Assembly (NCBI GenBank): GCA_905233345.1 | Contig: CAJODQ010000006.1 | Coordinates: 1-64,000 of the forward strand | DNA: 64,000 bases | DNA from: an uncultured Bacteroidales bacterium | Lineage (GTDB): Bacteria; Bacteroidota; Bacteroidia; Bacteroidales; UBA932 | Reading direction: 5' to 3' | In this document: positions 42,895 through 59,282 of the stretch, one piece after another | Layout of the letters: every line of letters starts with the position of its first letter | Position numbering within the stretch: position 1 is the stretch's first letter | Notes under the pieces: generated by a model | Database searches by the model: none | Told to the model about the DNA's origin: nothing | Seen by the model: the letters and a program-made list of their open reading frames with translations, nothing else | Translations under genes and position numbers: made by a program

Positions 42895-43416
42895 TCATTT
42901 CTTGTCCCTGCCTTCCTTCGGGGCCGGGCCCTGGGGAGGACGCTGGCCGTTTCCGTTGTGCTTGCGCAGGTTGTTGATCATGCGCTGCTGGAAGGCCTCT
43001 TCGGCCTGGTACAGCTTGGCCACCTTGCGAATGGGCAGCACCTTCTTGAATTTGGGATACCAGTCGGACATCACCTGGTTGGAGGCCTTGTTCGCCTGGA
43101 TGTAGGCGTCGACTTTCTTCTCCAGTTCGGCATCGGAGAGTTCGTCCGCTTTCGAACCGCGGAATTCGCCGAAGGCATCCATCATCGCCTTGTGGGAAAC
43201 CATGGCTTCTTTCCAGCATTGGTTGTACACCGGCCAGAACACCTGGGCCTCCTCGGGCGACAGGTCGAGTTCCTGGGTGATGAACGCGATCTTCTCGGAC
43301 TGAATGCGCTCGAAATCTTTCTTGCGCTGCTCTTCGCTCGGTTTCTGGCCCTGCGGCTGGGCGAAGAGGGTAACCGCCAGGAAAAGGCAGGCGGCGAAAC
43401 TAATGAATCGTTTCAT
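42895..43416 (-). CDS. periplasmic LTXXQ-motif / Spy-CpxP-like protein
   Basis: 173 aa with a signal peptide. Helical and lysine-rich, with spaced Gln/Glu motifs. Last gene of the ECF sigma operon. Confidence 0.55.
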   Translation of the reverse strand: MKRFISFAACLFLAVTLFAQPQGQKPSEEQRKKDFERIQSEKIAFITQELDLSPEEAQVFWPVYNQCWKEAMVSHKAMMDAFGEFRGSKADELSDAELEKKVDAYIQANKASNQVMSDWYPKFKKVLPIRKVAKLYQAEEAFQQRMINNLRKHNGNGQRPPQGPAPKEGRDKK

Positions 43417-43418
43417 GA

Positions 43419-43859
43419 CTAATAGGCTTGTGCGTAAATCTCGGCCAACTCGGAGAAGCTCAGCTCGGAAGCCAGATAGTCCAGGATGGCATCTTCGTCG
43501 AGCTCCGGCTCCTCGGTCGGCCCGGTTTGATAGTAATTGATGAGCGAAGCGGGACGGATCATCTCTTCCTCAGCCGTGGCGTACGAAGCGGACGCGTCGG
43601 TACCAGGTTTGTTCCCCATCGTACGGGTGAGGGATAGCACACCGTAGCCCATGCCGAAAATCAGGGCGAACATCGCGGCGAGGGTCAGCGCCGGCTTCAG
43701 GATCGTCCAGAAACGGACGGTCCGGGAAGCTGCTGGCTTCTCTTCGGCGGCGATGCGGGCCATCAGGCGATCCTCGAAACTGTCGAGGTAACCTTCCGGC
43801 ATCCGGAACGGATTCTCCCGGGCTTCAGGGCTGCTGAGTATGTCTTTCTGTTCGTTCAT
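43419..43859 (-). CDS. putative anti-sigma factor (single TM helix)
   Basis: 146 aa. Central TM helix ILKPALTLAAMFALIFGMGYGVL. Immediately downstream of the ECF sigma factor gene. Confidence 0.55.
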   Translation of the reverse strand: MNEQKDILSSPEARENPFRMPEGYLDSFEDRLMARIAAEEKPAASRTVRFWTILKPALTLAAMFALIFGMGYGVLSLTRTMGNKPGTDASASYATAEEEMIRPASLINYYQTGPTEEPELDEDAILDYLASELSFSELAEIYAQAY

Positions 43860-43891: not shown

Positions 43892-44431
43892 TTAAAATTT
43901 CTCATCAATTTCTTCTTTCATCCATGTCTTGATCTTTTCGTAGGCATGGTGATAAGATGCTTTCAGCGCGCCTTCGCTGGTTTCCAGTACATCAGCGATC
44001 TTTTCGTAGGGCATCTCCTCGAAGTAGCGGAGGTTGAACACCGCTTTCTGCTTGGGGGGAAGTTTGGCGATGGCCTTGTGCAGCGATCGCTGGAGTTGGT
44101 CGCCATCGAACCAGGGGTCGGTGGCCAGGCGGGCGGCAGCCTCCAGGTCGAGGTTCCCGCCACGGGTCTGCTGGCGCGAGAGGAAGGTTAGGCTTTCGTT
44201 GGTGGCAATGCGATAGAGCCATGTATAGAGCAGCGCGTCGCCCCGGAAACGGTCGAGCGACTGCCAGACTTTCACAAAAGTGTTCTGCAGGCAGTCGTCG
44301 GTGTCGTCATGGTCGAGCACCATGCGGCGGATGTGCCAATAAAGGCGCTCCTTGTAAGTGGACACAAGTCCACGGAACGCCTTTTCACGCTCGCCGGAAC
44401 GGTAGAGTTGCAGTATTTCGGTATCGGTCAT
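43892..44431 (-). CDS. RNA polymerase sigma-70 factor, ECF subfamily
   Basis: 179 aa. Region 2 (...YKERLYWHIRRMVLDHDDTDDCLQNTFVKVW...) and region 4 (...VFNLRYFEEMPYEKIADVLETSEGALKA...). Confidence 0.85.
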   Translation of the reverse strand: MTDTEILQLYRSGEREKAFRGLVSTYKERLYWHIRRMVLDHDDTDDCLQNTFVKVWQSLDRFRGDALLYTWLYRIATNESLTFLSRQQTRGGNLDLEAAARLATDPWFDGDQLQRSLHKAIAKLPPKQKAVFNLRYFEEMPYEKIADVLETSEGALKASYHHAYEKIKTWMKEEIDEKF

Positions 44432-45372
44432 CGCAGCGACAGCGCCGCCTCGACGATATGCCGTGCGTCAAGTCCGTAGGCAGCCATCAGCTCAGCGGGT
44501 TTACCGCTCTGGCCGAATTGGTCGTCGATGGCCACGAAACGCATCGGGGTCGGGCAGCTGGCAGCCAGCACACCTGCAATAACCTCGCCAAGACCGCCGG
44601 CGATCAGGTGTTCTTCCGCCACGACCACGCGCCCGGTCTTGCGAGCCGAAGCGATGACGGCTTCCTTGTCGAGCGGCTTGATGGTCGCGATGTCGATCAG
44701 GTCGACGCTGATGCCCTGGGCCTCCAACTCTTTGGCAGCCTGGATGGCTTCCCACACGAGGTGGCCGGTGGCAAAGATGGACACGTCCTTGCCGTCGTTC
44801 AGTTGAATGGCCTTGCCGATCTCGAACGGCTGGTCGGCCGGGGTGAAGTTGGGCACGCCCGGACGGCCGAAACGCAGATAGACGGGACCCTTCCAGGCCG
44901 CAGCGGCGAGGGTTGCCGCCTTCGTCTGGTTGTAGTCACAGGGGTTGATGACCACCATGCCCGGCAGCATCCGCATGATGCCGATGTCTTCGAGGGTCTG
45001 GTGGGTGGCGCCATCCTCGCCCAGCGTAATGCCGGCGTGCGAAGCGGCGATCTTCACGTTGGTCTGCGAGTAGCACACCGACTGGCGGATCTGGTCCATT
45101 ACGCGCGCGCTCGCGAAATTGGCAAAGGTGCCGATGAAGGGAATATAGCCCGCAATCGCCAGGCCGGCGGCCATGCCGACCATGTTGGCCTCGGCGATGC
45201 CCACTTCAAAGAAGCGGTCGGGGTGTTCCGCTGCAAACTGGTCCATCTTGAGCGAGCCCTTGAGGTCGGCCGTCAGGCCCACGACCATCGGGTTTCTGTT
45301 GCCCAATTCTGCCAGGGCGGCGCCAAAGCCGGAACGGGTGTCCTTTTTACCGGAATCTATATATTCTTTCAT
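44428..45372 (-). CDS. transketolase, C-terminal (pyrimidine-binding) subunit
   Basis: Start at the internal ATG (MKEYIDSGKKDTRSGFGAALAELG...). Transketolase PYR and C-terminal domains. ATGA overlap with the upstream subunit. Confidence 0.85.
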   Translation of the reverse strand: MKEYIDSGKKDTRSGFGAALAELGNRNPMVVGLTADLKGSLKMDQFAAEHPDRFFEVGIAEANMVGMAAGLAIAGYIPFIGTFANFASARVMDQIRQSVCYSQTNVKIAASHAGITLGEDGATHQTLEDIGIMRMLPGMVVINPCDYNQTKAATLAAAAWKGPVYLRFGRPGVPNFTPADQPFEIGKAIQLNDGKDVSIFATGHLVWEAIQAAKELEAQGISVDLIDIATIKPLDKEAVIASARKTGRVVVAEEHLIAGGLGEVIAGVLAASCPTPMRFVAIDDQFGQSGKPAELMAAYGLDARHIVEAALSLR

Positions 45373-46214
45373 AACGCAAAGTCTCCCATCGTTTCTTCGA
45401 GTTGTTTCATGGCTTCCGCGCACTGTTCCACGGAAGGATTCTTGCCGTGCCACTTGCAGGTGCCGGCCATGAAGTCGACGCCGTGGCCCATCTCCGTATG
45501 CCAGAGGATCATCACCGGCTTGCCTTTGCCCAGCTGGGCGCGGGCGGCCTTAAACGTCTTTTCGATATTCGTGAAGTCATGTCCGTCGCCTTCGAGGACG
45601 GTCCAGCCGAAGGCTTCCCATTTGCTGCGCAGGTCGCCCAGGCCGGCCACCTCTTCGGTCGTGCCGTCGATCTGCTGGTGGTTCCAGTCGGTCATGGCGA
45701 TCAGGTTGTCCACCTTGTGGTGCACGGCCGACATGGCGGCCTCCCAGATCTGCCCTTCTTCCGTCTCACCGTCGCCGATCAGGACATAGACGGTGCGCGG
45801 GTCGCCGCTGAGCTTTTTGCCCAGAGCGGCGCCGATGGCTACAGAAAGCCCCTGACCCAGGGAACCGGCGGCCTGGTTCACGCCCGGCAGGCCTTTTTCC
45901 ACGCAGGGATGGCCCTGCAGCCGGGTGCCGAAGCGGCGGAAGGAGGCCAGCTCGGCGACCGGGAAATAGCCGCGGCGGGCCAGCACGCTATAGAGAACCG
46001 GAGAAATGTGTCCCGCAGAAAGGAAGAACTGGTCGAGTCCCTCTCCACTGCGGCGCCACATCTCCGGAGTCACATTCATTTCTTTGAAAAACAGCTGGGT
46101 CAGGACATCGGTGGCGCTCAGCGATCCGCCCGGGTGGCCCGAAGCGGCGGCTGTAACCATGCGCACGATATCCCTCCGCACCTGCGAAGCGATCTGGGGA
46201 AGTGTATACGTCAT
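45369..46214 (-). CDS. transketolase, N-terminal (TPP-binding) subunit
   Basis: 281 aa. ...GHPGGSLSATDVLTQLFF... and the ...GDGETEEGQIWEA... TPP-binding motif. Confidence 0.85.
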   Translation of the reverse strand: MTYTLPQIASQVRRDIVRMVTAAASGHPGGSLSATDVLTQLFFKEMNVTPEMWRRSGEGLDQFFLSAGHISPVLYSVLARRGYFPVAELASFRRFGTRLQGHPCVEKGLPGVNQAAGSLGQGLSVAIGAALGKKLSGDPRTVYVLIGDGETEEGQIWEAAMSAVHHKVDNLIAMTDWNHQQIDGTTEEVAGLGDLRSKWEAFGWTVLEGDGHDFTNIEKTFKAARAQLGKGKPVMILWHTEMGHGVDFMAGTCKWHGKNPSVEQCAEAMKQLEETMGDFAL

Positions 46215-46294
46215 GGGTGAAGATTGTTTAGGTATGTGCCTTACAAAGGTAAGAAATAATTCGTATCTTCGTGATTCAAGATCGTACTCTCTCT

Positions 46295-47671
46295 ATGAAA
46301 AAAATCCTGCTGATCCTGATGGCCTTTTTGAGCCTGACGTCGGCCCTGGCCCAGCCGGCGCCGCTGCCGGAACAAGTGGTGCTCGTGCAGCGCGCCAACG
46401 TGACGGCGGTGTTCGGCGGACCGACGCAGCCGCAGGGCCGCTCCTACAACAACGCGCCCTCCTTCTTCATCTATCCGGACAGGAAGCTCGACAAGACCGG
46501 CGCCGAAGCACTGGTGGCATCCCTGGACCTGCAGGCCGTGCTGGATGTGAACTTCGGAACGGCATTCGTCATCAATCCAGTCGGCGATGCCTATGCGGCA
46601 GACAAGGACTTCGAGGTCTTCGTGGAACTGTTCAACCGCGCCCGGAGTGGCAACCTGAAAGTCATCGGCTTTGGCAATGGCGCCAGCTTCGTCAACCAGG
46701 TGCTTGCCCTGCGCGCGGCCGATCATATCGCCGGCATCGCCACGGTAGACGGCAAGCCCGCCAAACTTCCCAAAGGGTTCACATCATGGGGTGTCCCGGC
46801 CTTCGTGAGCGGGAAGAATGCCGCCAAAGTGGCGAAAGAATACGAAGCGCTGAACGCGGCCCAGGCCCCTTATGAACCGCTGTTGCAGGTGGTTGTGTCG
46901 TCCGCAAACGAGCCGGGCGCTGTGTTCGCAGAGGCCTGGGAAAAAGTTTTCTCGCGCAATTTCCGCTTCAACAACTACAAGCATACCCACTACGAAGGCG
47001 CGAAATTCGGCCAGTACGGTCCCTATGAACTCGAACCCTATGCCGAATGGGAACCCCTCGGCATTGAGCGCATCGTCGTGGAATATGGCGCCTCGTACCG
47101 GGGCCGCGATCTCAACGGCCCGAAATACCTCTGGTATGAATACTGGCCCAAAGAGCTGAAGGAAGGCGCACCGGCGCACAGCGTGCCGGTGGTCGTGCTG
47201 CTGCACGGCAATACCAACGACCCGCGCACCCAGGCCGAAACCTCGGGCTTCCTGCAGGTAGCGGGCGAAGAGCGCATCTTCCTCGTGGAGATGGAATGGC
47301 AGGGCACGCCCAACTACCAGGCCATGGGCCACGACGGCATTGAGAGCGTACTGGCCATCCTGTTTGAAAAATATCCCCAGCTCGACCCTTCGCGCGTCTA
47401 TGCGCACGGGCTTTCCGCCGGTTCGATGACCGCCACCGCACTGGGTATCAAGAAATCGCACCTGTTCGCCGCCGTGGGCGGCAATTCCGGCGCCCTGTTT
47501 ACCGGCCACTGGATCGGGCCGTTCCCGACTTTCGAAACCATCTGGGCCGAAGCGACCCAGAAACGGGGCTGCGTGGAGACGGCCTACATCTCCGTCTTCG
47601 GCACAATGGACACCACCGTTCCTTACATGACCCCCGACAACTGGCGGGGCAACAGCTACCTCAACGCCTGA
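46295..47671 (+). CDS. secreted alpha/beta-hydrolase (esterase), truncated by an in-frame TGA at 47669-47671
   Basis: Signal peptide MKKILLILMAFLSLTSALA. Nucleophile elbow GLSAGS. The frame continues without shift into the next ORF. Confidence 0.7.
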   Translation: MKKILLILMAFLSLTSALAQPAPLPEQVVLVQRANVTAVFGGPTQPQGRSYNNAPSFFIYPDRKLDKTGAEALVASLDLQAVLDVNFGTAFVINPVGDAYAADKDFEVFVELFNRARSGNLKVIGFGNGASFVNQVLALRAADHIAGIATVDGKPAKLPKGFTSWGVPAFVSGKNAAKVAKEYEALNAAQAPYEPLLQVVVSSANEPGAVFAEAWEKVFSRNFRFNNYKHTHYEGAKFGQYGPYELEPYAEWEPLGIERIVVEYGASYRGRDLNGPKYLWYEYWPKELKEGAPAHSVPVVVLLHGNTNDPRTQAETSGFLQVAGEERIFLVEMEWQGTPNYQAMGHDGIESVLAILFEKYPQLDPSRVYAHGLSAGSMTATALGIKKSHLFAAVGGNSGALFTGHWIGPFPTFETIWAEATQKRGCVETAYISVFGTMDTTVPYMTPDNWRGNSYLNA

Positions 47672-48088: not shown

Positions 48089-49348
48089 ATGAAAAAGAAA
48101 GGTATCATCATTCTGAGCTCCGTAGTCATCCTTTGCGCTCTCGGTCTTCTGTTGTCTCCCCTGATGGACTGGAATGTCGACAGCGACCAGACCAGCGGCA
48201 ACATCGGCAAATCTTCCCGTTTCTCCCGCAAGACCACGACCGAAACCGTCAGTAATGTGGAGGAACTCCTCCTCAACGATGAGGCTTATAAAAATGGTAT
48301 GGTGGCCGCTTACGTGGTCATGCAGACCCGCGCCCAGCAGTTCGACGCCCTCGTGGATATGTCCAATGAGGTGGCCGGCGACATCAGCGACTTCGACGGC
48401 GTGCTCAAGGATATGAATAACGTCCGCCCGATGATCGACAACGTGTGTGCTTCGCTCTCTGAAGCCGGTGACGACCTGAACGCCGCTCTCAGCGGTCAAA
48501 GCCGTCCCGACCTGGCGCAGAACACCATCAACGCATCGCTGGCATACACCACGCTCCAGAAGCAGAACAAGCTGGCCGACCGCTTCATCATCACGGCCGA
48601 CACCTATCTTAATAATAACGAAGGCAACGACCGCCTCAAATTCGTCCGCGACCAGTGGGTGGCTTACCAGCAGATGACCGCCGCCCTTGACAACGACGAG
48701 AAGGCTGCCGCCGCCCTGGCGGAGAAAGGCTACAAGCTGACGCCCGAACAGAGCGCCGCCGCCCTGAATGAATTCGGCATGGCCGATGCCATCAAAATCA
48801 TGAACGGCACCGTGGTAGCCGGCTACGTGGCTATGGACTCCCCGCTGGCCCAAGCCATCACGACCGATATGGTTCAGGATGCGGCCCGCGCCATCGTCAC
48901 GACGGACATGGTCTCCGACCATATCACCTTTGGAGACGCTATCAAGAACGCCACGGGCGATGTGGTTGCCAGCACCATCACGGACGAAATGGTCCGGAAC
49001 GCCACGGGCGACGTGGTTTCCAACATCACGACCGATGCCGTCAAGAACGCCACGGGTGACGTGGTTTCCAATATCACGACCGATGCCGTCCGGAATATCA
49101 CCCAAGATGTGGTCAGTAATGGTATCGTCATGAGAGCCTCCGTATTCTCCGACAAGGACATGGTCAGCAACGCCTTCAACGAGATCGTTGTCAGGAACAG
49201 CATCGTCAACAACGTGACCACCGACATGGTCCGCAATGCCTCGGATGACCTGCGCAGCTCCATGGTCATGAACCAGATCGGCGATGCCATCAAGAACGTG
49301 GCCGTCGGTAATTTCCAAGGCGTCGGCTTCCTGGTGAAAGACTTATAA
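48089..49348 (+). CDS. membrane-anchored repeat protein of unknown function (tandem 16-aa repeats ITTD[AM]V[KR]NATGDVVSN)
   Basis: 419 aa with an N-terminal signal/anchor. The C-terminal third is built from ~8 degenerate copies of a 16-aa unit, seen as a 48-bp tandem DNA repeat at ~48944-49135. Confidence 0.6.
   Translation: MKKKGIIILSSVVILCALGLLLSPLMDWNVDSDQTSGNIGKSSRFSRKTTTETVSNVEELLLNDEAYKNGMVAAYVVMQTRAQQFDALVDMSNEVAGDISDFDGVLKDMNNVRPMIDNVCASLSEAGDDLNAALSGQSRPDLAQNTINASLAYTTLQKQNKLADRFIITADTYLNNNEGNDRLKFVRDQWVAYQQMTAALDNDEKAAAALAEKGYKLTPEQSAAALNEFGMADAIKIMNGTVVAGYVAMDSPLAQAITTDMVQDAARAIVTTDMVSDHITFGDAIKNATGDVVASTITDEMVRNATGDVVSNITTDAVKNATGDVVSNITTDAVRNITQDVVSNGIVMRASVFSDKDMVSNAFNEIVVRNSIVNNVTTDMVRNASDDLRSSMVMNQIGDAIKNVAVGNFQGVGFLVKDL
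48944..49135 (+). repeat. 48-bp coding tandem repeat (~4 clear copies) inside the repeat-protein gene
   Basis: aacgccacgggcgaygtggtttccaayatcacgaccgatgccgtcmrg repeated head-to-tail. Confidence 0.7.
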
Positions 49349-49375: not shown

Positions 49376-52375
49376 ATGCGTATCCGATTCTTTGTACTGC
49401 TACTGCTGCTGTTCCCGGCCCTGACGCACGGACAGATTCAGACCTACTACCAGTATAAAACCGATGAAGCCCGGCTGGTGTTCTTCGACAAGAACCTCTC
49501 GCGCTACATCCCCCACATGGTACGCATGTTCCAAAACGGCAAGGCGCTTCACGGGCAGATCTGGACAACAGACTCCGTGTATGTCCCGGAAGCGCCCCTG
49601 CTGCTTTTGACGGACTGGGAGGACGACGGCAACGGCGGAGCAACGCCGCTGCCGCGTTCGCTTATTCAGATCGGCATGGCGCCGCTGAACATGTCCTATT
49701 ACATCAACCCATCGAGCGAGCGTTACCGGCAGCTGTTCTGTCACGAATACACGCACATCGTGATGACCGACAAATACAACCGCAAGGACCTGGGCTGGCG
49801 CAAGTTCTTCGGCACCAAAGTCAGTGTCGACAACACCCAGCCCCTCTCCGCCATCTGGAGCGCCGTGACGGTCCCCCGCTGGTATGCCCCCCGCTGGTAT
49901 CAGGAGGGCATTGCCTGTTTCATGGAGACCTGGCTCGGCGGTGGCGTCGGCCGCTCCCTGGGCGGTTACGACGAGATGTATTTCCGCAGCATCGTCGACG
50001 GCGGCGACAAGCTCTTCTCGGTGGTGGGCCTCGAGACGGAAGGCTCCACGATGGACTTCCAGGTGGGTGCCAACGCGTACCTCTACGGCACCCGCTTCGT
50101 CAATTTCCTGGCGAAAGAATACGGATACGAGAATCTGATCAAGTTCTACAACCGGACGGCCGACAGCCGCACCTATTTCGGCAACCAGTTCAAACAGGTC
50201 TACGGCCGCCCGCTCCGCAAAGTCTGGAACGAGTGGAAGGAAGACGAGAAAAAGCACCAGGCGGAGAACCTGGCCGCCATCCGGGAATATCCCCTTACCG
50301 AGACCACGCCCGTGACCCCGGAACCGCTGGGTTCCGTATCACCGCTGGTCTATGACCCCGCCACGGGCAAGGCCTACGCCGCCATGAACGCACCGGGCAG
50401 TTTCGCGCACCTGACCGAGATCGACGTGAACACCGGCAAGCGGCGGAAACTCGTCGATATCTACGGCATCCAGCTCTACAATCCCGCATTCGTAGCCCTG
50501 GACCGCAACGCCCATCGCCTCATCTACACATCAAACAACGCCAAGATGCGCGGCCTCTACGTGTACGACCTCCAGAAAAAGAAAGTCGTCAAGAAGAAGA
50601 ATTTCCAGCGCGTCAACAACATCGTGTATGACAATGTCAACGACTGCCTCTACGGCCTGTTCTCCAATGCCGGCACGCAGTCGATCGTCCGTTTCGACCG
50701 TGATATTGAAAATCCCGAGGTCATCTATGCCTTCCCCTTCGGCGTCAGTGTGTTCGACATTGACATCAGCCACGACGGCAAGATGCTGACCCTCACCCGG
50801 CAGGGCGACAACGGCGAGCACACGCTCCTGCTCTTCCGGACCGACGAACTGGCACAGGCCATTTTCAAGCCCGTGGAGCTGGTAACCTGGGAAGACAGCA
50901 ACCTGGGACAGTTCCGCTTCTCACTCGACGACAAATACCTGATCGGCAGCTCCTACTATACCGGCGTGTCGAACCTCTGGCAGATCAACATCGCCACCCG
51001 CGAGATGGAGATGCTCAGCAACACCGACATCGGCCTCTTCGCCCCGCTGGAATTCGAGCCCGACAAACTCCTGGCGCTTGAATTCGTGCGCGACGGCATG
51101 CGTCCGGTGACGCTCGACCGCAAGATCGTAACCGACGCCAACGCCATCACGCTCTACGGCCAGCGCGCTTTCGAGAACAACGAAAAAGCGCTCACGGAGG
51201 TGGGCCTGCACAAGGAACCCCTGCCCAAGATCGAGTTCGGCGACGTCTACAACAACATCACGCCTTACAACGTTTTCAAGGAGATGCGCTTCGCGGGCGC
51301 CTATCCCATCGTCTCAGGCTTCACCGACACCACGTTCTGGAATCGTGTGACGCCGGTGCTCGGCTACCGCTTCTTCTTCAGCGACCCGGTGGGCCTGAGC
51401 AGCATCAAGCTGGACTTCGGCATTTCGCCCTGGAGCAACCACGACTGGAAGAACAAGTTCCATGTGGACTTCATGTGGAAGTACTACTTCTGGACCCTCA
51501 AGGCCGCCTGGAACCACACTGACTTCTACGACCTGGCCGGCCCGATGCGTGCCAGCCGCAAGGGATACATGGTTACACTGGCCTACGACCACACCAACAC
51601 CATGCTGACACCGTATTCCCGCGGTTGGGGCTTCTCCCTGGGGGCTTACGGCGGCATGGACGCGCTGCCGCTCTATCAGGAGATCGAAGTGGACAAAGAC
51701 ATCAAAGCGCTGCAGACCGCTTCCGTCTACGGCAAGATCTCGAAAACCCGGACGTCCCTGGGCGGCGTGATGCGCGAGCAGGGCTATGAACTGGGCATCC
51801 AGGGCTACGGCTACCTGGCCGACTGGCACTTCTATCCTTCGGTCGAGGCTTCCGCCGATTTCGGCGTGTTGCTTCCGATCGACCGCAATACTTCTTTCTG
51901 GCTCCGTACCGCGGGCGGGCACAATTTCGGCGATCCCAACACGGTCTTCGGCAATACCTATCTGGGTGGCTTCCGCAACAACCGCGTAGACTACCGCAAC
52001 GCCTTCCAGTACCGCACGTCCCTGGCCATGCCGGGCGCGGCCATCGACGCCATCCAGGCACACTCCTATGCCAAGGCGACGGCCGAGCTCAACCTGCGGC
52101 CCATCCGCCTCAACAACTTCGGCGCCCTGTTCTTCTATCCGACCTGGATCCAGTGCTCCTTCTTCGGAACCGGCCTGTCCACCTGGAATCCCGACGTCAG
52201 CAAAACGATCCCGCAGATGTACTACAGCGCCGGCGTGCAGCTGACCACCGAGCTGGTGTTCATGACTTATCTCAAGACCACGCTTTCCTTTGGTTACGGA
52301 CACCTGTTCGCACCGGAAGGATTCAAAGGAGGAAGGCATGGCAATGAATGGATGATCTCACTCAAGTTGCTGTAA
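49376..52375 (+). CDS. large (~1000 aa) outer-membrane-type protein: N-terminal HExxH zinc-metallopeptidase-like domain + beta-propeller region + C-terminal beta-barrel-like domain; unknown family
   Basis: Signal peptide MRIRFFVLLLLLFPALTHG. HEYTH motif (QLFCHEYTHIVMTD), and a possible third ligand in WYQEGIACFMETW. Propeller-like repeats (...LYVYDLQKKKV..., ...TLLLFRTDELAQ...). The C-terminus is rich in alternating aromatic/Gly residues (...GWGFSLGAYGGMDALPLYQEIEV...). Confidence 0.7.
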   Translation: MRIRFFVLLLLLFPALTHGQIQTYYQYKTDEARLVFFDKNLSRYIPHMVRMFQNGKALHGQIWTTDSVYVPEAPLLLLTDWEDDGNGGATPLPRSLIQIGMAPLNMSYYINPSSERYRQLFCHEYTHIVMTDKYNRKDLGWRKFFGTKVSVDNTQPLSAIWSAVTVPRWYAPRWYQEGIACFMETWLGGGVGRSLGGYDEMYFRSIVDGGDKLFSVVGLETEGSTMDFQVGANAYLYGTRFVNFLAKEYGYENLIKFYNRTADSRTYFGNQFKQVYGRPLRKVWNEWKEDEKKHQAENLAAIREYPLTETTPVTPEPLGSVSPLVYDPATGKAYAAMNAPGSFAHLTEIDVNTGKRRKLVDIYGIQLYNPAFVALDRNAHRLIYTSNNAKMRGLYVYDLQKKKVVKKKNFQRVNNIVYDNVNDCLYGLFSNAGTQSIVRFDRDIENPEVIYAFPFGVSVFDIDISHDGKMLTLTRQGDNGEHTLLLFRTDELAQAIFKPVELVTWEDSNLGQFRFSLDDKYLIGSSYYTGVSNLWQINIATREMEMLSNTDIGLFAPLEFEPDKLLALEFVRDGMRPVTLDRKIVTDANAITLYGQRAFENNEKALTEVGLHKEPLPKIEFGDVYNNITPYNVFKEMRFAGAYPIVSGFTDTTFWNRVTPVLGYRFFFSDPVGLSSIKLDFGISPWSNHDWKNKFHVDFMWKYYFWTLKAAWNHTDFYDLAGPMRASRKGYMVTLAYDHTNTMLTPYSRGWGFSLGAYGGMDALPLYQEIEVDKDIKALQTASVYGKISKTRTSLGGVMREQGYELGIQGYGYLADWHFYPSVEASADFGVLLPIDRNTSFWLRTAGGHNFGDPNTVFGNTYLGGFRNNRVDYRNAFQYRTSLAMPGAAIDAIQAHSYAKATAELNLRPIRLNNFGALFFYPTWIQCSFFGTGLSTWNPDVSKTIPQMYYSAGVQLTTELVFMTYLKTTLSFGYGHLFAPEGFKGGRHGNEWMISLKLL

Positions 52376-53409
52376 TGTCGTTCGTCGCTGCCCTTCTCCC
52401 CGTCGCCATCTATATTTTTGTCGTCTATAAGCTCGACAAATTTTCGCTGCTGAGCGTCCAGCGCCTGCTGCTGCTGGTCCTGTGCGGCATGGGCGCGGCG
52501 CTGGTCTGCTTCGGCCTGTTCTGGCTGACCGATCCGCTGCTGCCAGAGCGCGCCTCCGATATCCTCGACCCGATCCTGGAAGAAGCCGTCAAGGCCATTC
52601 CACTCCTAATCCTGGCCCGTCGCAAGAAGATCGTGTTTTTCATCGACAGCGTCATCTGCGGCGCTGCGGTGGGCGGTGGCTTCTCCATCCTGGAAAATCT
52701 GTTTTACCTGCTGCTGGGTGAAGGCATGAGCATGGGCACCGTGCTGTTCCGCGGCCTGGAAGTGGCCCTGATCCACATGGGCTGCAGCGCCATCGTCGCC
52801 GCCGGCCTGATGTTCGCCGTCCGCTTGACGGAACGCCGCAAGGCCGGACTGGATGTCAAGCAAAAAGACGTGCTGATGTCCGTTTTCCTGCTCATTGCAG
52901 CCCCGGCGCTGCATGTCTTCCACAACAGCTTCCACTTCAACCCGCTCTTCCAGTATGTCTTCGTGTTCGGGTCCATGGCCGGGCTGCTGGTGTGGACTTA
53001 TTCCTATGACGGCGACATGATCCACCGCTGGTTGGACAAAGGCCTGGACAAGCAGGTGAGCCTGCTCCATTCCATCCGAGAAGGTCAGTTGGGAGAAACC
53101 AAGACTGGCCAGTTCCTGGTTTCGGTCAAGGATTCCTTCCCGCCGGAAGTCTTTTTCGACATCATCTGCTACGTGCAGCTACACGTGTCGCTTTCCGTGG
53201 CGGCCAAAAGTCGCTTCATGATGCGGGAGATGGGGTTGGCCCTTCCGTTGGAGGAAGAAAAGAAACAACAGTATCTTACGCAGTATCAGGAATATATCGA
53301 TCTGGAGAAAAATCTGGGCAAGAGTGCCCGGATGACGATTGCGCCGGTCGTGAAGTTTTACCCGGCCGACCGTAAATCCCTCGATGACTTGTTGGCCGAG
53401 TGCCGGTAA
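52348..53409 (+). CDS. PrsW-family intramembrane metalloprotease (M82-like); alternative start 52375
   Basis: 353 aa, multi-TM. PrsW signature motifs E-E-x-x-K (LEEAVKAIP), F-x-x-x-E (GGGFSILENLFY) and H-x-x-x-N (VFHNSFHFN). Overlaps the end of the upstream gene. Confidence 0.7.
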   Translation: MDDLTQVAVMSFVAALLPVAIYIFVVYKLDKFSLLSVQRLLLLVLCGMGAALVCFGLFWLTDPLLPERASDILDPILEEAVKAIPLLILARRKKIVFFIDSVICGAAVGGGFSILENLFYLLLGEGMSMGTVLFRGLEVALIHMGCSAIVAAGLMFAVRLTERRKAGLDVKQKDVLMSVFLLIAAPALHVFHNSFHFNPLFQYVFVFGSMAGLLVWTYSYDGDMIHRWLDKGLDKQVSLLHSIREGQLGETKTGQFLVSVKDSFPPEVFFDIICYVQLHVSLSVAAKSRFMMREMGLALPLEEEKKQQYLTQYQEYIDLEKNLGKSARMTIAPVVKFYPADRKSLDDLLAECR

Positions 53410-53458
53410 ACAATCCCGTTTGGTTTTTTGGGCACAAAATCCGAAATTTGTGTCCGAG

Positions 53459-54547
53459 ATGACCTATACTTTTCCGGAAATGATGCTCAGTGCCATGACG
53501 GCGGTCTATGTGGCCGTCAGCGTGGTGGTTGCGGTGGTCCGCTGGGGGCACCGGTGCACGGCCTATGCCAAGCACATGGACTATTATTTTCCGGATTGGA
53601 AAACTTTTATCTACTGCTTCATGTCCAACATCGTGCTCTGTCCGGTCATCTTCCTGCCCGCAGAAACCGATGCGGTCCTGCTGTTGCGCATGATGCTCAT
53701 GCTGGCTTCGCCCTTTCATTGCGCGGTGCTGATTTTCAGTTATTTCGGCCGGATACTCAACGTCACCTGGTGGCGCAAGCCCATCTACGCGCTGACAGCC
53801 ACTTATACGGTGATGGCCCTCATCGCGCTGGTAGTCACCCTCATACCCGGGACGCAGATGCAAGGCGACTTCTTCCGCTGGTTCTTCCTGGTGGGTGACC
53901 TCTTGGCCATGATCTATCTGATCAGTTTTGTCCTGGCCCTGAACATGATCATCCGCGCGCTCCAGCGCTTCTCCGACGAGAACTATTCCAACCCCGATGA
54001 TTTTCCGAAGCAATATACCGAGTTCATTCTCTGGGTGTCGGTCCTGCACCTGATCATGAGCTGGAGTATGGCGTTCAACGGTCGGATCTGGGCCCTTTCC
54101 TTCGGTCTGTTCATCCTGTCCATCCTGGCTGTCGTCCTGCTGATCGGTGCCCTCAACCCGCACCGGACGGTGGAGGTGGACCAGCTGGAAGCAGCGCTCA
54201 ATGCCGAGAAGGAAGAAAAGGCGATGGAAACGGACATCCTCTCGCCGGAACGGAAAGAGGAAATTCTGCTCGCCATCCGCCAGCAGGTGGAAGAGAAAGA
54301 GGGTTTCCTCGACAGCCACCTCACACTCAGCAAATTGTCCCGTGACTGCGGGCTCAACCGCACCTATGTATCCTGGGTGCTGAACGAACGGCTCGGCGGC
54401 TTCTTCTTTTACATCAACCGCTGCCGCATGGCCCACGCGGACAGCTACAAGGCATCGCACCCGCAGGCCGATGTCGACGAGGTTGCGCTCGCTTCGGGTT
54501 TCAACAACCGCCAGTCGTTCTACAACGCCCGCAAGCGCCTCGGTTGA
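53459..54547 (+). CDS. polytopic membrane protein with C-terminal AraC-type HTH DNA-binding domain (membrane-tethered transcriptional regulator); alternative start 53384
   Basis: ~6-7 TM helices, then the cytoplasmic AraC HTH pair LTLSKLSRDCGLNRTYVSWVLNERLGG ... DVDEVALASGFNNRQSFYNARKRLG. Confidence 0.75.
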   Translation: MTYTFPEMMLSAMTAVYVAVSVVVAVVRWGHRCTAYAKHMDYYFPDWKTFIYCFMSNIVLCPVIFLPAETDAVLLLRMMLMLASPFHCAVLIFSYFGRILNVTWWRKPIYALTATYTVMALIALVVTLIPGTQMQGDFFRWFFLVGDLLAMIYLISFVLALNMIIRALQRFSDENYSNPDDFPKQYTEFILWVSVLHLIMSWSMAFNGRIWALSFGLFILSILAVVLLIGALNPHRTVEVDQLEAALNAEKEEKAMETDILSPERKEEILLAIRQQVEEKEGFLDSHLTLSKLSRDCGLNRTYVSWVLNERLGGFFFYINRCRMAHADSYKASHPQADVDEVALASGFNNRQSFYNARKRLG

Positions 54548-54553
54548 TCCAGT

Positions 54554-55363
54554 TTATTTCGGAAGACCAAAAGCCCCTTTGAGTTCGTCCATCTGCGCGT
54601 CGCTCATCCCTTCGGGCTCAAAGCCCATGTTGCGCGCCGCGATATAGATTTGGGCGGCCTTGTTGAGGACGTCCACCTGGTCGAAGGCGTTGAGGATATC
54701 GGTTTCTACGGCAAAGACGCCGTGTTTTTCCCACATCACCACATCGTAATCTTCATCCAGGGCCCGGATGGTCGCTTCAGCCAGCTCGACACTCGAAGGC
54801 ATCAGGTAAGGCACGATGCCCAGGCCACGCGGGCAGAAGGCCCGGGTCTCGGGAATCATCGACCAGAGCATACGCGTGGCAGCGTCTTTTTCGAGCCATT
54901 TCCGGCTGTGGGTCAAGGCCACCAGCTCGATGGGATGCGTATGCAGCGAGGCGCGGTAGGGCGAGCCTTTGGCCAGCAGGTAGTCGTGGACAGCCAGGTG
55001 CGACGGGAGCTCCGAGGTGGGGGCGACGGGCGCATCTGCGACGATCTCGTAGCGGTCACAACCCGGCAGGATGCGGATGATGGAACCGTTGGCCATGGGG
55101 TCGCGGGCCAGGTCGCGCATGCGGCGGCCCGTGCCTTTGCAGTAGAACCAGCAGCCCGCCAGGTGCGGCAATGCCTTGCCGATGGGGCGAGGCTCCGTGA
55201 GGGCCGGCAACGCCCGCATCGCATCGTCGACATAGGCGGTGATGTTGATGGTGATATTGCCGCCGTTACGCTCGGCCCAGCCCTTTTGCCAGAGATAGCC
55301 GGCCACTTCGGCGACTTTGTCGATTTCGGCCTGCAGGGCCGGATGTTGGATTAAGATGTTCAT
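54554..55363 (-). CDS. rhaD: rhamnulose-1-phosphate aldolase (class II aldolase/adducin family)
   Basis: Start at the internal ATG (MNILIQHPALQAEIDKVAEVAGYLWQKGWAERNGGNITI...). Class II aldolase fold. Lies in the rha operon. Confidence 0.85.
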   Translation of the reverse strand: MNILIQHPALQAEIDKVAEVAGYLWQKGWAERNGGNITINITAYVDDAMRALPALTEPRPIGKALPHLAGCWFYCKGTGRRMRDLARDPMANGSIIRILPGCDRYEIVADAPVAPTSELPSHLAVHDYLLAKGSPYRASLHTHPIELVALTHSRKWLEKDAATRMLWSMIPETRAFCPRGLGIVPYLMPSSVELAEATIRALDEDYDVVMWEKHGVFAVETDILNAFDQVDVLNKAAQIYIAARNMGFEPEGMSDAQMDELKGAFGLPK

Positions 55364-56370
55364 ATCAATTGTGGCAAGAAGGTACTGAATATTAACACCG
55401 CCAGACCGATAACCAACACCAGGATGGTTTTCTTCGAGGCTCCCTTCCATTCATGGAGAATAATGCCCCAGACATTGCTGAAAACGACATTGAGGGCCAT
55501 CAGGATACACCAGCTGAAGGTGATCAGCGTCGGGTATTCGCGCAGGAAGCCCTTGCCGAGGCTCAGGCCGAAGAACTGACTGTACCAGAGCAGGCCGGCC
55601 AGGGCACAGAACACCAGGTTGTGGCCCCAAAGGGACTTTTGCCTGTAATCGCCCCATGTCTTGTTTTTCGTGTTCTGGCTGAAGCAATACACGGCGTTTG
55701 TCAGAAAACCGCCGAAGGTCACCAGCAGCGTAGCGGGCAGGCTCTTGAAGATATCGGGGGTAGCTTCCCAAGTCAAAGGTTCACCGAAGCTCAGGCCGAT
55801 GTTGAAGCAGGCGCTCATGAAGCCGGCCAGCAAGGCTACGGCGATGCCCTTCCCGAAGTTGAACTCCTTAACAGCACCGGCTTGACCCGGCATCTCCCGG
55901 GCTTTCATAGCCCCTGCCACGCCGATGATGGCGATGCCGACAAGGGTGACCACCACACCGATGATGACCGAAGAGGTCAGATCATGGGCATGACCCGTAA
56001 AGACGGGGCCAAGGATGGCACCCAGGGCGGAACATGTACCAAGGGCGATGCTCTGACCGAGGGCGACGCCGAGGTAGCGCATGCTCAGGCCAAAGGTCAG
56101 GCCGCCGATGCCCCAGAGGGCGCCGAAGAGGATGGTCAGGAGGCTGGCCTTGGGATTGGCGGCATACATGGCGAAGAGGGATTCGCCAGCCGGGACGGCG
56201 AGGAGGGCGCCCAACAGCGGGAAGATCAGCCAGGCGAAGACGCCCTGGACGATCCAGTAGCTTTCCCAGCTCCAGGATTTGATCTTATTGATCGGCACAT
56301 AGCTGCTGCTCTGGCAGAACGCGCCGATAGCGATGATTAACAGTCCGATGAATATGTTCATAATCAACAT
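55360..56370 (-). CDS. rhaT: L-rhamnose-proton symporter
   Basis: 336 aa, 10 TM helices, RhaT family (...SYWIVQGVFAWLIFPLLGALLAVP...). Confidence 0.85.
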   Translation of the reverse strand: MLIMNIFIGLLIIAIGAFCQSSSYVPINKIKSWSWESYWIVQGVFAWLIFPLLGALLAVPAGESLFAMYAANPKASLLTILFGALWGIGGLTFGLSMRYLGVALGQSIALGTCSALGAILGPVFTGHAHDLTSSVIIGVVVTLVGIAIIGVAGAMKAREMPGQAGAVKEFNFGKGIAVALLAGFMSACFNIGLSFGEPLTWEATPDIFKSLPATLLVTFGGFLTNAVYCFSQNTKNKTWGDYRQKSLWGHNLVFCALAGLLWYSQFFGLSLGKGFLREYPTLITFSWCILMALNVVFSNVWGIILHEWKGASKKTILVLVIGLAVLIFSTFLPQLI

Positions 56371-56436
56371 TTGCGATAAATCTTCCGTTCCGCAGTATAT
56401 AGGGTTTCAACCCTATATACTGTCTCCACTACAGAT

Positions 56437-57687
56437 TTATCTCTTCGATGTTACGTTACGTTCGTATTTCTCGATTTCGGGGATAAAGGCCTCACCCACA
56501 GGGACATTGTTCTTGAGGTTGAAATAGTCGAAGACGGCGCCGAAGGGAAGGGTCTTGGCTTCTTCTAAGAGAGCGAGGCGCTGGAAGCCCTGGCCGGCGT
56601 CTTCGTATTCCCGCAGCTTTTTCAGCGGCTCGAGGAGGGCGCTCAGCAGACATTTCTGCGTGGCGCGGGAGCCGATCACGTAGGCGCCGATGCGGTTGAT
56701 GGCAGCATCGAAATAGTCGAGGCCGATGTGGCTGCGTTGCAGCGCGTCGGCGCGCACAATCTCCTTGAAGAGGTCGAGCGTCTGATCGTTCATGATGGTC
56801 ACATGGTCGGAATCCCAGCGGATGGGACGGCTCACGTGCAGCATCAGCTCGGGCACGAAGAGCAGCAGCGACGCAACCATGTCGGACACATTTTCCGTCA
56901 TCTCATAGTGTCCCGTATCGAGCGTGTACATCAACTTGCGGGTGGCGCAGTAGCCTGCCACGAAGTCGTGCGAGCCCACGGTATAGCTTTCCAGGCCGAT
57001 GCCGAAGAGTTTGGCCTCGAGGCAGGTCTTCATGCCGGGCAGGTCTTCCTTCAGGATTTCGTCCAAGCTCTGGGCGAAGATCTCGCGGTAACGCTTACGC
57101 TCCACAGTCTGGTCCTTGGAACCGTCATGCACCCAGATATTCATGATGCAGGGGTCGCCCTGCGCCTTGCCCATCGCGTCGGCAATGCGGCGGCAGCGCT
57201 TGGTGTGCTCGATCCAGAAGTCCCGGATGCCTTTGTCAGGGTTGGCCAGCGAAAGGTCGCCGCTCTTGGGGTGACCGAACGACGTGGAGTTGAAGTCGAG
57301 CTTCATGTCGTTTTCTTTCGCCCACTGGATCCAGCTCTCGAAATAGCGGACGTCCACCTGGTCGCGGTCTACGAACTTGCCGCCGAAGTCACCGTAGATT
57401 TCGTGGAGGTTGAGGCGGTGGCGGCCGGCGATCAGGCTCTTGGCAAAACGCACGTCAGCGCGCACTTCGTCGATATTGCGGGCGCGGCCCGGATAATTGC
57501 CGGTGGTCTGGATGCCGCCCGACAGGCCGTCTGCACTCTCAAAACCGATGACATCATCGGTCTGCCAGCAGTGCAGGGAAATGGGGGTTTGTTCCAGGAT
57601 TTCGACGGCTTTGTCGGTGTCTACGCCCAGTGCGGCGTAGCGTTCGCGGGCGTATTCATAAGCTTTCAGGATTTCGGAATCTTTCAT
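56437..57687 (-). CDS. rhaA: L-rhamnose isomerase
   Basis: Start at the internal ATG (MKDSEILKAYEYARERYAALGVDTDKAVE...), 416 aa. RhaA TIM-barrel family (...WVHDGSKDQTVERKRYREIF...). Confidence 0.9.
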   Translation of the reverse strand: MKDSEILKAYEYARERYAALGVDTDKAVEILEQTPISLHCWQTDDVIGFESADGLSGGIQTTGNYPGRARNIDEVRADVRFAKSLIAGRHRLNLHEIYGDFGGKFVDRDQVDVRYFESWIQWAKENDMKLDFNSTSFGHPKSGDLSLANPDKGIRDFWIEHTKRCRRIADAMGKAQGDPCIMNIWVHDGSKDQTVERKRYREIFAQSLDEILKEDLPGMKTCLEAKLFGIGLESYTVGSHDFVAGYCATRKLMYTLDTGHYEMTENVSDMVASLLLFVPELMLHVSRPIRWDSDHVTIMNDQTLDLFKEIVRADALQRSHIGLDYFDAAINRIGAYVIGSRATQKCLLSALLEPLKKLREYEDAGQGFQRLALLEEAKTLPFGAVFDYFNLKNNVPVGEAFIPEIEKYERNVTSKR

Positions 57688-57712
57688 ATGTTGTATATGC
57701 GTATTGTTATCT

Positions 57713-57790
57713 AAGTGCTGCAGATGTCCCATTTTTGGGGACATCAACTTCAAAAATGCCTGTATTCGCTGTTGATGTCCCACTTTTTGG
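57713..57790 (-). promoter_or_regulatory. two copies of a ~26-nt palindromic element (GATGTCCCAnTTTTTGGGGACATCAAC) in the rhaB-rhaA intergenic region
   Basis: Copy 1 at 57713-57738, copy 2 at 57761-57790. Each forms an 8-11-bp perfect stem with a U-rich loop. Confidence 0.6.
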
Positions 57791-57794
57791 GACA

Positions 57795-59282
<1,488 letters not shown>

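Follow-up and report, generated by a model that had tools for sequence, protein, structure and literature searches.

The Omp85 proteins are central to outer-membrane biology. The Omp85/TpsB superfamily was split by Heinz & Lithgow 2014 (Front Microbiol 5:370) into ten subfamilies, one of them named 'WD40-like' (PMC4104836). The supplementary tables of that work list WD40-like members carrying PD40 repeats with or without PF01103, and the Phyre2 matches given for them in Table S3 are BamA/TamA, TolB (2w8b, 2ivz) and a 'best aminopeptidase hit', e.g. 1z5h, 4kxd, 4fgm or 3qnf (PMC4104836). The subfamily was only catalogued, with a BamA-BamB fusion speculated by the authors, and the peptidase part is present in the supplementary table alone (PMC4104836). 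In a 2024 paper these members are summed up as Omp85 proteins with 'divergent WD40 and peptidase domains' (PMC11358297). A gene of this architecture, located at 49376..52375 in a 64,000-nucleotide stretch of DNA from an uncultured Bacteroidales bacterium (contig CAJODQ010000006.1, positions 1 to 64,000, hereafter the window), is described here together with its neighbor genes. Its product, a protein of 999 residues, will be called the barrel protein.

The second described system close to this locus is the SigW-RsiW-PrsW-RasP pathway of Bacillus subtilis, in which PrsW is the site-1 protease that starts RsiW destruction and activates SigW (PMC10202637, PMC5358783). The Escherichia coli sigmaE system (RseA, RseB, DegS, RseP) and cell-surface signalling share a concept with the pathway proposed below: a single-pass anti-sigma factor is proteolyzed step by step, and the state of the outer membrane is thereby transmitted to an extracytoplasmic function (ECF) sigma factor. 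As for later steps in Bacillus, Heinrich, Hein and Wiegert are said to have described in 2009 that extracytoplasmic peptidases trim the RsiW stub before RasP acts. The site-2 protease (RasP/RseP) is normally encoded elsewhere in the genome. The barrel protein is encoded beside a PrsW-family protease that retains its catalytic motifs, and the reading preferred here, with a probability of about 0.5, is that it is a periplasm-facing peptidase tethered to the outer membrane that works with PrsW in the regulated proteolysis controlling an envelope-stress sigma factor.

Domains and family of the barrel protein

The open reading frame (ORF) extends from an ATG start to a TAA stop, according to both the ORF list and the translation, in agreement with the protein of about 1000 residues indicated in a preliminary description of this DNA. 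A chance ORF is excluded because more than 2,800 homologues were found at E<=1e-3 in a database search, and 6,129 at E<=1e-20 with a distant family member as query. The features of the gene and its product are the following:

49376..52375, + strand: whole ORF, 999 residues, with signal peptide, gluzincin domain, six-bladed propeller, linker and 16-strand Omp85-type barrel
49376..49432, + strand: signal peptide, residues 1-19, MRIRFFVLLLLLFPALTHG, Gln at +1 (from the translation)
49439..50281, + strand: predicted gluzincin (clan MA(E)) peptidase domain, residues 22-302
49742..49756, + strand: HEYTH, predicted zinc-binding and catalytic motif, residues 123-127 (by conservation)
49895..49927, + strand: WYQEGIACFME, residues 174-184, with E177 as predicted third zinc ligand (by M1 alignment and conservation)
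50075..50089, + strand: AYLYG, residues 234-238, with Y235 or Y237 as candidate transition-state Tyr (by conservation)
50303..51130, + strand: six-bladed TolB-like beta-propeller, residues ~310-585
51131..51286, + strand: helical linker without POTRA, residues 586-637 (DSSP of the model)
51287..52372, + strand: 16-strand Omp85/BamA-type barrel, residues 638-999
51926..52063, + strand: strand 11-12 loop of 46 residues, 851-896, at the position of Omp85 loop L6, with a GGF(R/G)NNxVD...YR motif (from the model)

A full-length AlphaFold2 model, for which the alignment covered family members with as little as 22% identity, reached a mean predicted local distance difference test score (pLDDT) of 90.2 and a predicted template modelling score of 0.88. 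The model comprises an alpha/beta head at residues 22-302, a propeller of 24 strands in six four-stranded blades (residues ~310-585) and a barrel of 16 long strands (residues 638-999) with pLDDT mostly above 85. The folds of the propeller and the barrel were backed by fold searches with the model, so that both the PD40/TolB-like propeller and the outer-membrane barrel of the preliminary description were confirmed, the latter specifically as an Omp85/BamA-type barrel. The leader MRIRFFVLLLLLFPALTHG, followed by QIQ, is of the signal-peptidase-I type and has no lipobox Cys, and the model has a helix at residues 2-17 with low pLDDT at 16-20. The signal peptide, also noticed before, is thus read directly off the translation and the model helix. 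Taken together, translation, conservation and predicted structure establish a real outer-membrane protein with a cleavable signal peptide, a catalytically intact predicted gluzincin, a TolB-like propeller and an Omp85/BamA-type barrel.

The HEYTH motif had been placed ten residues too far, at about 133-137; the motif itself is present, at residues 123-127, and the Glu of the downstream WYQEGIACFME segment is conserved as E177. An alignment of 47 close homologues has H123, E124, H127, E177 and E184 invariant, and the same five residues remain at least 90% conserved in the family-wide alignment, as far as 22% identity. All but three of the 296 full-length relatives have retained HExxH and, after it, W..EGxA; the second His and the Glu are 50 residues apart in 277 of these 293. 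In a profile of the head domain the 'PRWYxEGIAVFxE' segment aligns with the 'WWNDLWLNEGFATFMEY' segment of IRAP, and E177 matches the Glu that binds zinc in the M1 'WLNEG' motif; since the aligned IRAP segment carries the third zinc ligand of M1 enzymes, E177 is likely the third zinc ligand here. Both Y235 and Y237 are invariant or nearly so in the close and family-wide alignments, and 290 of 296 relatives have a Y-x-Y/F-G motif 45-65 residues past W..EGxA; on the model of M1 enzymes, either Tyr is a candidate for the transition-state role. A thermolysin-like fold, HExxH and a downstream Glu as predicted third ligand correspond to clan MA(E), in support of the gluzincin-like head noticed in the preliminary description, and because the catalytic and ligand residues are conserved in 293 of 296 relatives the head looks like an active gluzincin.

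The head shares HExxH and a Glu in a W..EG..F.E helix with the M1 aminopeptidases of clan MA(E) (ERAP1, APN, tricorn factor F3), whose 'WLNEGFA' segment aligns with this helix and whose conserved downstream Tyr is also found. Membership in family M1 itself was rejected, as HExxH and the Glu are separated by 49 residues where M1 enzymes have 18, both the N-terminal beta-sandwich and the C-terminal helical domain of M1 are missing, and the exopeptidase motif GxMEN, expected about 35 residues ahead of HExxH, is replaced by GNGGA in a conserved D..D.GNGGA stretch (residues 80-89) without Glu.

Some relatives depart from this plan. Three full-length proteins (P0067, P0150 and P0152) retain the propeller and barrel but lack the HExxH...W..EG pattern, the HExxH position being occupied by DRESMQ in P0150 and NYQTTQ in P0152; they may be pseudo-peptidase variants. 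Another three, P0122 (1365 residues), P0151 (1211 residues) and P0159 (1226 residues), have an extra 270-350 residues ahead of the peptidase head.

The solved structure nearest to the barrel in the fold search is BamA, not FhaC, and this structural likeness places the barrel in the Omp85 group defined by BamA, TamA or FhaC. Sequence profiles were less informative. The barrel has no match to the Pfam models PF01103 and PF19143, and its profile found none among PDB sequences. Omp85_2 was matched at E<0.01 by 11 of 31 family barrel domains and scored just above its cut-off in two homologues, P0048 and P0068 (24 bits against 23.1). In the loop 851-896, residues G864, F866, N869, D872 and R880 are invariant, and this segment is a candidate counterpart of the BamA VRGF motif by position alone. 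DSSP of the model detected only short helices ahead of the barrel (residues 594-636) and no POTRA domain. This is still compatible with the Omp85 superfamily, whose noNterm, Metallo and WD40-like subfamilies likewise lack POTRA (PMC4104836).

The peptidase and propeller are predicted to face the periplasm. In Omp85 proteins the N-terminal domains are normally periplasmic, and in the model the loops at odd-to-even strand junctions are long (7, 11, 13, 18, 2, 46, 9 and 11 residues) and the even-to-odd turns short (5, 2, 5, 9, 7, 13 and 3 residues). On the basis of this normal topology and of the loop lengths, the secreted, surface-exposed location given in the preliminary description is not supported.

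Neither the whole-protein searches of Pfam and NCBIfam nor the PDB sequence search yielded a family or structure covering the protein, and the top 120 homologues are all 'hypothetical protein' or unnamed. The sole Pfam match is Peptidase_MA_2 (PF13485), restricted to residues 171-288 and sub-threshold (20.4 bits, E 4.7e-4, against a gathering threshold of 32.4 bits); homologues score 22-26 bits, also below this cut-off. A profile search against Pfam had been proposed beforehand, and this is its outcome. The nearest relatives are from metagenome-assembled genomes of rumen Bacteroidales and Prevotellaceae, with a homologue of 74% identity in Xylanibacter ruminicola. The family comprises thousands of sequences from Bacteroidota, Ignavibacteriota, Chlorobi, Rhodothermota, Calditrichota, Zixibacteria, KSB1, Latescibacterota, Fibrobacterota, Cloacimonadota, Acidobacteriota and some Proteobacteria. 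The statement that the domain combination could not be placed therefore stands for named Pfam and NCBIfam families but not for the literature, since the WD40-like subfamily was catalogued in 2014 (PMC4104836), nor is the architecture rare, contrary to its description as unusual.

The three parts of the barrel protein, an aminopeptidase-like region, a TolB-like propeller and an Omp85 barrel, are those of the WD40-like subfamily, and the Table S3 matches are essentially equal to the fold matches of the model. The taxa overlap as well (Rhodothermus, Caldithrix, Chlorobi, Cloacimonas, Bacteroidetes and deltaproteobacteria). The protein thus matches this subfamily, whose listed members include D0MEQ5, H1XQ58 and B3QRX6, a placement that was made by architecture and taxonomy. 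Two differences are that the barrel is below PF01103 detection and that the gene has neighbors (PrsW, repeat protein and sigma/anti-sigma genes) whose linkage was not found mentioned in the subfamily report (PMC4104836). The architecture was therefore catalogued in 2014 and is very common, and has no named family model.

Two other assignments were considered and rejected. With a TolB orthologue only the propeller is common, the N-terminal alpha/beta domain of TolB being absent and no tol-pal genes being present; the scanned neighboring genes of the window gave no match to Tol-Pal families, and the families matched by the conserved neighbor clusters scanned in related loci were those of sigma factors, kinase-like proteins (HATPase_c_2) and PrsW. 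PlpD, of type Vd secretion (patatin-POTRA-Omp85), also has an enzyme N-terminal to an Omp85-type barrel, but the head of the barrel protein is of gluzincin type and predicted to be periplasmic, with neither a patatin-like passenger nor POTRA.

Conserved gene neighborhood

The gene lies second in an operon of four tightly packed genes. These genes, and a sigma factor pair encoded nearby, are as follows:

48089..49348, + strand: upstream operon partner, 419 residues, with an N-terminal transmembrane helix, the juxtamembrane motif SGNIGKSSRFSRK and a repetitive tail (from the translation)
52348..53409, + strand: PrsW-family intramembrane protease with a C-terminal domain of ~140 residues, likely start ATG at 52375 (PF13367, E 2.4e-16)
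53384..54547, + strand: multi-pass membrane protein with a C-terminal AraC-type helix-turn-helix (HTH_18 match and hydrophobic segments)
43892..44431, - strand: ECF sigma factor (Sigma70_r2 and r4_2 domains)
43419..43859, - strand: candidate anti-sigma factor, 146 residues, with one transmembrane segment, directly after the sigma gene (by position and hydrophobic segment)

The upstream partner ends 27 nucleotides before the gene of the barrel protein, and the ATG of the PrsW gene overlaps the stop codon of the latter as TAATG. The presence of a PrsW gene next door had been pointed out in the preliminary description; its conservation was analyzed in a survey with one genome per species, in which 80 loci out of at least 589 confirmed relatives were retrieved from Bacteroidota, Ignavibacteriota, Chlorobiaceae, Rhodothermales, Cloacimonadota, Zixibacteria, KSB1, Latescibacterota, Marinimicrobia, Fibrobacteraceae, Eisenbacteria, Acidobacteriota and a few Proteobacteria. 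A PrsW homologue lay no more than 6 kb away in 73 of the 80 loci, and directly downstream on the same strand in 59; four of the seven loci without it have a contig too short to tell. These homologues are 26-86% identical to the PrsW of the window over about 330 residues. The motifs EE..K, F..EN, RG..H and H..N are invariant in 37 homologues, all of which have the C-terminal domain of ~140 residues in common. Adjacency to PrsW is conserved across more than ten phyla, is near-obligate and is not incidental.

In the search for further partners, all ORFs of the distant loci were clustered and the sequences were then read. Most distant loci have, just upstream of the relative of the barrel protein, a gene whose product begins with a short basic stretch and a single transmembrane helix, continues with the conserved juxtamembrane motif G(T/S/N)IG..(K/R)(Y/F)R..Q(M/L)(S/T)..D and ends in a variable, often highly repetitive tail. 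A strict GTIG regular expression recovered only 18 of 69 loci, but reading and alignment revealed that the motif is more variable yet common: the upstream protein of the window and those of 19 distant loci have G(T/S/N)IG..(K/R)(Y/F)R in common, with G37 invariant. With SGNIGKSSRFSRK and its 48-nucleotide tandem repeats, the upstream gene of the window fits this GTIG repeat-protein pattern. Three copies of the repeat are present at 48942..49113, each encoding a 16-residue unit like TTDAVKNATGDVVSNI, and the protein varies in length among close relatives (419 residues in the window, 442 and 484 elsewhere). The three-gene core of repeat protein, barrel protein and PrsW is conserved from Bacteroidota to Acidobacteriota.

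Further upstream, many loci contain an ECF sigma gene followed by a gene for a single-pass protein of ~260 residues. Sigma genes were collected from 22 sources (21 loci and the window) and anti-sigma-like genes from 18 loci. The profile of the operon-linked sigma factors matches AlgU-like, SigW and RpoE structures (E 1e-48 to 1e-39). Used as a profile, the first 100 residues encoded by the gene that follows sigma have their best PDB match in Bacillus RsiW (E 3.9e-10), and 13 of 16 such genes match the NCBIfam 'anti-sigma factor' model. In three loci (L057, L065 and L079) the anti-sigma domain, transmembrane helix, GTIG motif and repeat tail are fused in one polypeptide. This fusion shows the tail to be periplasmic and the repeat protein to be capable of being the anti-sigma factor itself.

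An RsbW-like HATPase_c_2 (kinase-like) gene is located just upstream of the operon-linked ECF sigma gene in 19 loci, among them L057 (3438-4125), L079 (2875-3587), L065 (2990-3682) and L072 (2114-2527). The adjoining gene of ~94 residues in L057, the one locus scanned for it, encodes a STAS domain, and an ORF of ~94 residues occupies the same position in other loci. These genes suggest a partner-switching input into the operon-linked sigma factor.

The sigma factor of the window matches the hidden Markov model of the operon-linked sigma factors with E 1.4e-37, compared with ~1e-6 for unrelated ECF sigma factors in the loci, and by this score it belongs to the same group as the sigma factors encoded in the operons of other phyla.

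Proposed pathway and alternative explanations

In the mechanism proposed, the barrel would serve as the outer-membrane anchor, and the peptidase and propeller would extend into the periplasm. The propeller would capture, or gate access to, the periplasmic repeat tail of an anti-sigma or anti-sigma-like protein anchored in the inner membrane, and the zinc peptidase would degrade or trim this tail. PrsW would cut the same anti-sigma/GTIG protein close to the membrane or at its surface, acting like a site-1 protease, and the two activities together, in a presumed order, would free the ECF sigma factor. The module would then be a diderm counterpart of Bacillus SigW-RsiW-PrsW, plus a protease tethered to the outer membrane that possibly couples the response to the state of this membrane. 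A broader and more tentative proposal is that a trans-envelope pathway of this kind operates in many phyla, an Omp85-anchored zinc peptidase and PrsW destroying an RsiW-like anti-sigma factor with a repeat tail and thus switching on a sigma factor similar to RpoE/SigW.

The cluster has in common with the Bacillus system a PrsW-family protease with conserved catalytic motifs and, in many relatives, an RsiW-like anti-sigma domain and a SigW/RpoE-like ECF sigma factor. Unlike Bacillus, the hosts have an outer membrane and the cluster adds a zinc peptidase with a propeller, predicted to be anchored in it. The linked anti-sigma domain is without the zinc-binding Cys/His pattern, the periplasmic side consists of a repeat tail that bears GTIG..KYR, and the linked PrsW has the extra C-terminal domain. 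Cell-surface signalling (TonB-dependent transducer, anti-sigma factor and ECF sigma factor) resembles the proposed pathway in that an outer-membrane barrel is a dedicated component. However, the proteins of this system and of the sigmaE system are unrelated to those described here: DegS is a serine protease and the transducer a 22-strand TonB-dependent barrel, whereas the barrel protein has an Omp85-type barrel that itself bears a metallopeptidase.

Several points weigh against the pathway. The family is known from sequences and predicted structures alone, and the His-His-Glu zinc site is predicted from sequence. The periplasmic orientation is a presumed one, and PlpD is a case of an Omp85 barrel that exports its own N-terminal domain; the repeat tail is likewise a presumed substrate. 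Only about 40% of the distant loci have an ECF sigma gene within 6 kb, so that sigma control may be lineage-specific and not the core function. As for the window, its upstream protein lacks an anti-sigma domain, the sigma/anti-sigma pair is located ~5 kb away on the opposite strand, past two transketolase genes, and the candidate anti-sigma gene 43419..43859 had no family match in the domain scan.

Among the alternatives, an export and maturation machine for the upstream repeat protein is unlikely. PrsW would free the repeat protein at GTIG..KYR, the Omp85 barrel would export the tail in the style of two-partner secretion, the peptidase and propeller would process it, and the sigma/anti-sigma genes would only regulate expression. 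The upstream protein has a membrane anchor, a conserved juxtamembrane motif and a highly variable repetitive tail like those of surface proteins, Omp85/TpsB barrels such as FhaC translocate partners (PMC4104836) and PrsW domains have been suggested to act as peptidases that release exported proteins (PMC3482391). However, no two-partner-secretion domain is evident in the repeat-protein cargo, the barrel has no POTRA and is nearest to BamA rather than FhaC, and the repeat protein carries an RsiW-like cytoplasmic anti-sigma domain in three loci, because of which signalling is favored over secretion.

A role in assembly or quality control of outer-membrane proteins has a similarly low probability. 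The barrel protein would be a BamA-BamB-like fusion that also contains a BepA-like protease for the removal of stalled outer-membrane proteins, and PrsW and the sigma factor would belong to the same stress regulon without being mechanistic partners. This would agree with the BamA-like barrel, with a propeller that recalls BamB and TolB (PMC4104836), with the policing of BAM by periplasmic zinc proteases such as BepA (PMC13067283) and with the RpoE/AlgU-like nature of the linked sigma factor. The lack of POTRA domains argues against it, and the strict adjacency and translational coupling to PrsW across more than ten phyla favor a physical or stepwise partnership over shared regulation alone.

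A self-exported surface protease, in which the barrel would move the peptidase and propeller to the outside in a type V (PlpD-like) manner for the degradation of external proteins, is very unlikely. A signal peptide, a protease and a C-terminal barrel do occur in one chain, and PlpD is a precedent for the export of an enzyme by an Omp85 barrel (PMC4104836). Nevertheless, POTRA and the patatin-like passenger are both absent, a rigid six-bladed propeller is an improbable passenger, the conserved partners reside in the inner membrane and have periplasmic parts, and the loop-length pattern fits a periplasmic N-terminus.

The weakest alternative, a non-catalytic receptor whose peptidase-like head would just bind the peptide tail and serve as an outer-membrane docking site, could account for the three relatives lacking the HExxH...W..EG pattern with the rest of the protein kept and for the replacement of the M1 GxMEN motif by GNGGA, but the conservation of catalytic and zinc-ligand residues in 293 of 296 relatives over very large distances is unexpected for a domain that only binds.

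The sensing of outer-membrane damage outside the Proteobacteria is little understood, and a dedicated outer-membrane protease connected to an intramembrane one would represent a new way of achieving it. If correct, the proposed pathway would provide the FCB group and Acidobacteriota with a counterpart of the proteobacterial DegS-RseA sigmaE outer-membrane stress response, and a first function to an Omp85 subfamily without POTRA; the POTRA-less subfamilies are without assigned function. No link of Omp85 proteins to PrsW or ECF sigma factors was found in the searchable literature, and the partnership of the barrel protein with PrsW, the GTIG repeat protein and the RsiW-like/ECF sigma pair appears to be undescribed as far as this literature extends. 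The pairing with PrsW and with an RsiW-like anti-sigma/envelope-stress sigma pair thus offers a testable hypothesis for an orphan architecture, and Xylanibacter ruminicola is a cultivable family member suitable for direct tests.

Other genes in the window

The fourth gene of the operon (53384..54547) overlaps the end of the PrsW gene by 26 nucleotides and is conserved solely in the closest relatives, at loci with ~75% identity or more. Its product could be a membrane-tethered transcription factor released by proteolysis. Directly after the sigma/candidate anti-sigma pair, 42895..43416 (-) encodes a protein of 173 residues, rich in charged residues and with a signal peptide, that gave no family match and may be a periplasmic member of the regulon of the sigma factor 43892..44431.

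Between the transketolase genes and the operon, 46271..47671 (+) encodes a protein with a PHB-depolymerase/esterase-like C-terminal region (NCBIfam E 1e-16). Since the corresponding interval is only ~220-260 nucleotides in two close relatives (L001 and L002), this region looks like a lineage-specific insertion. The operon is flanked by ordinary metabolic genes: a split transketolase at 44428..46214 (-), with the N-terminal and C-terminal halves as separate genes, and a rhamnose set at 54554..57969 (-) that includes a class II aldolase, RhaT and RhaA.

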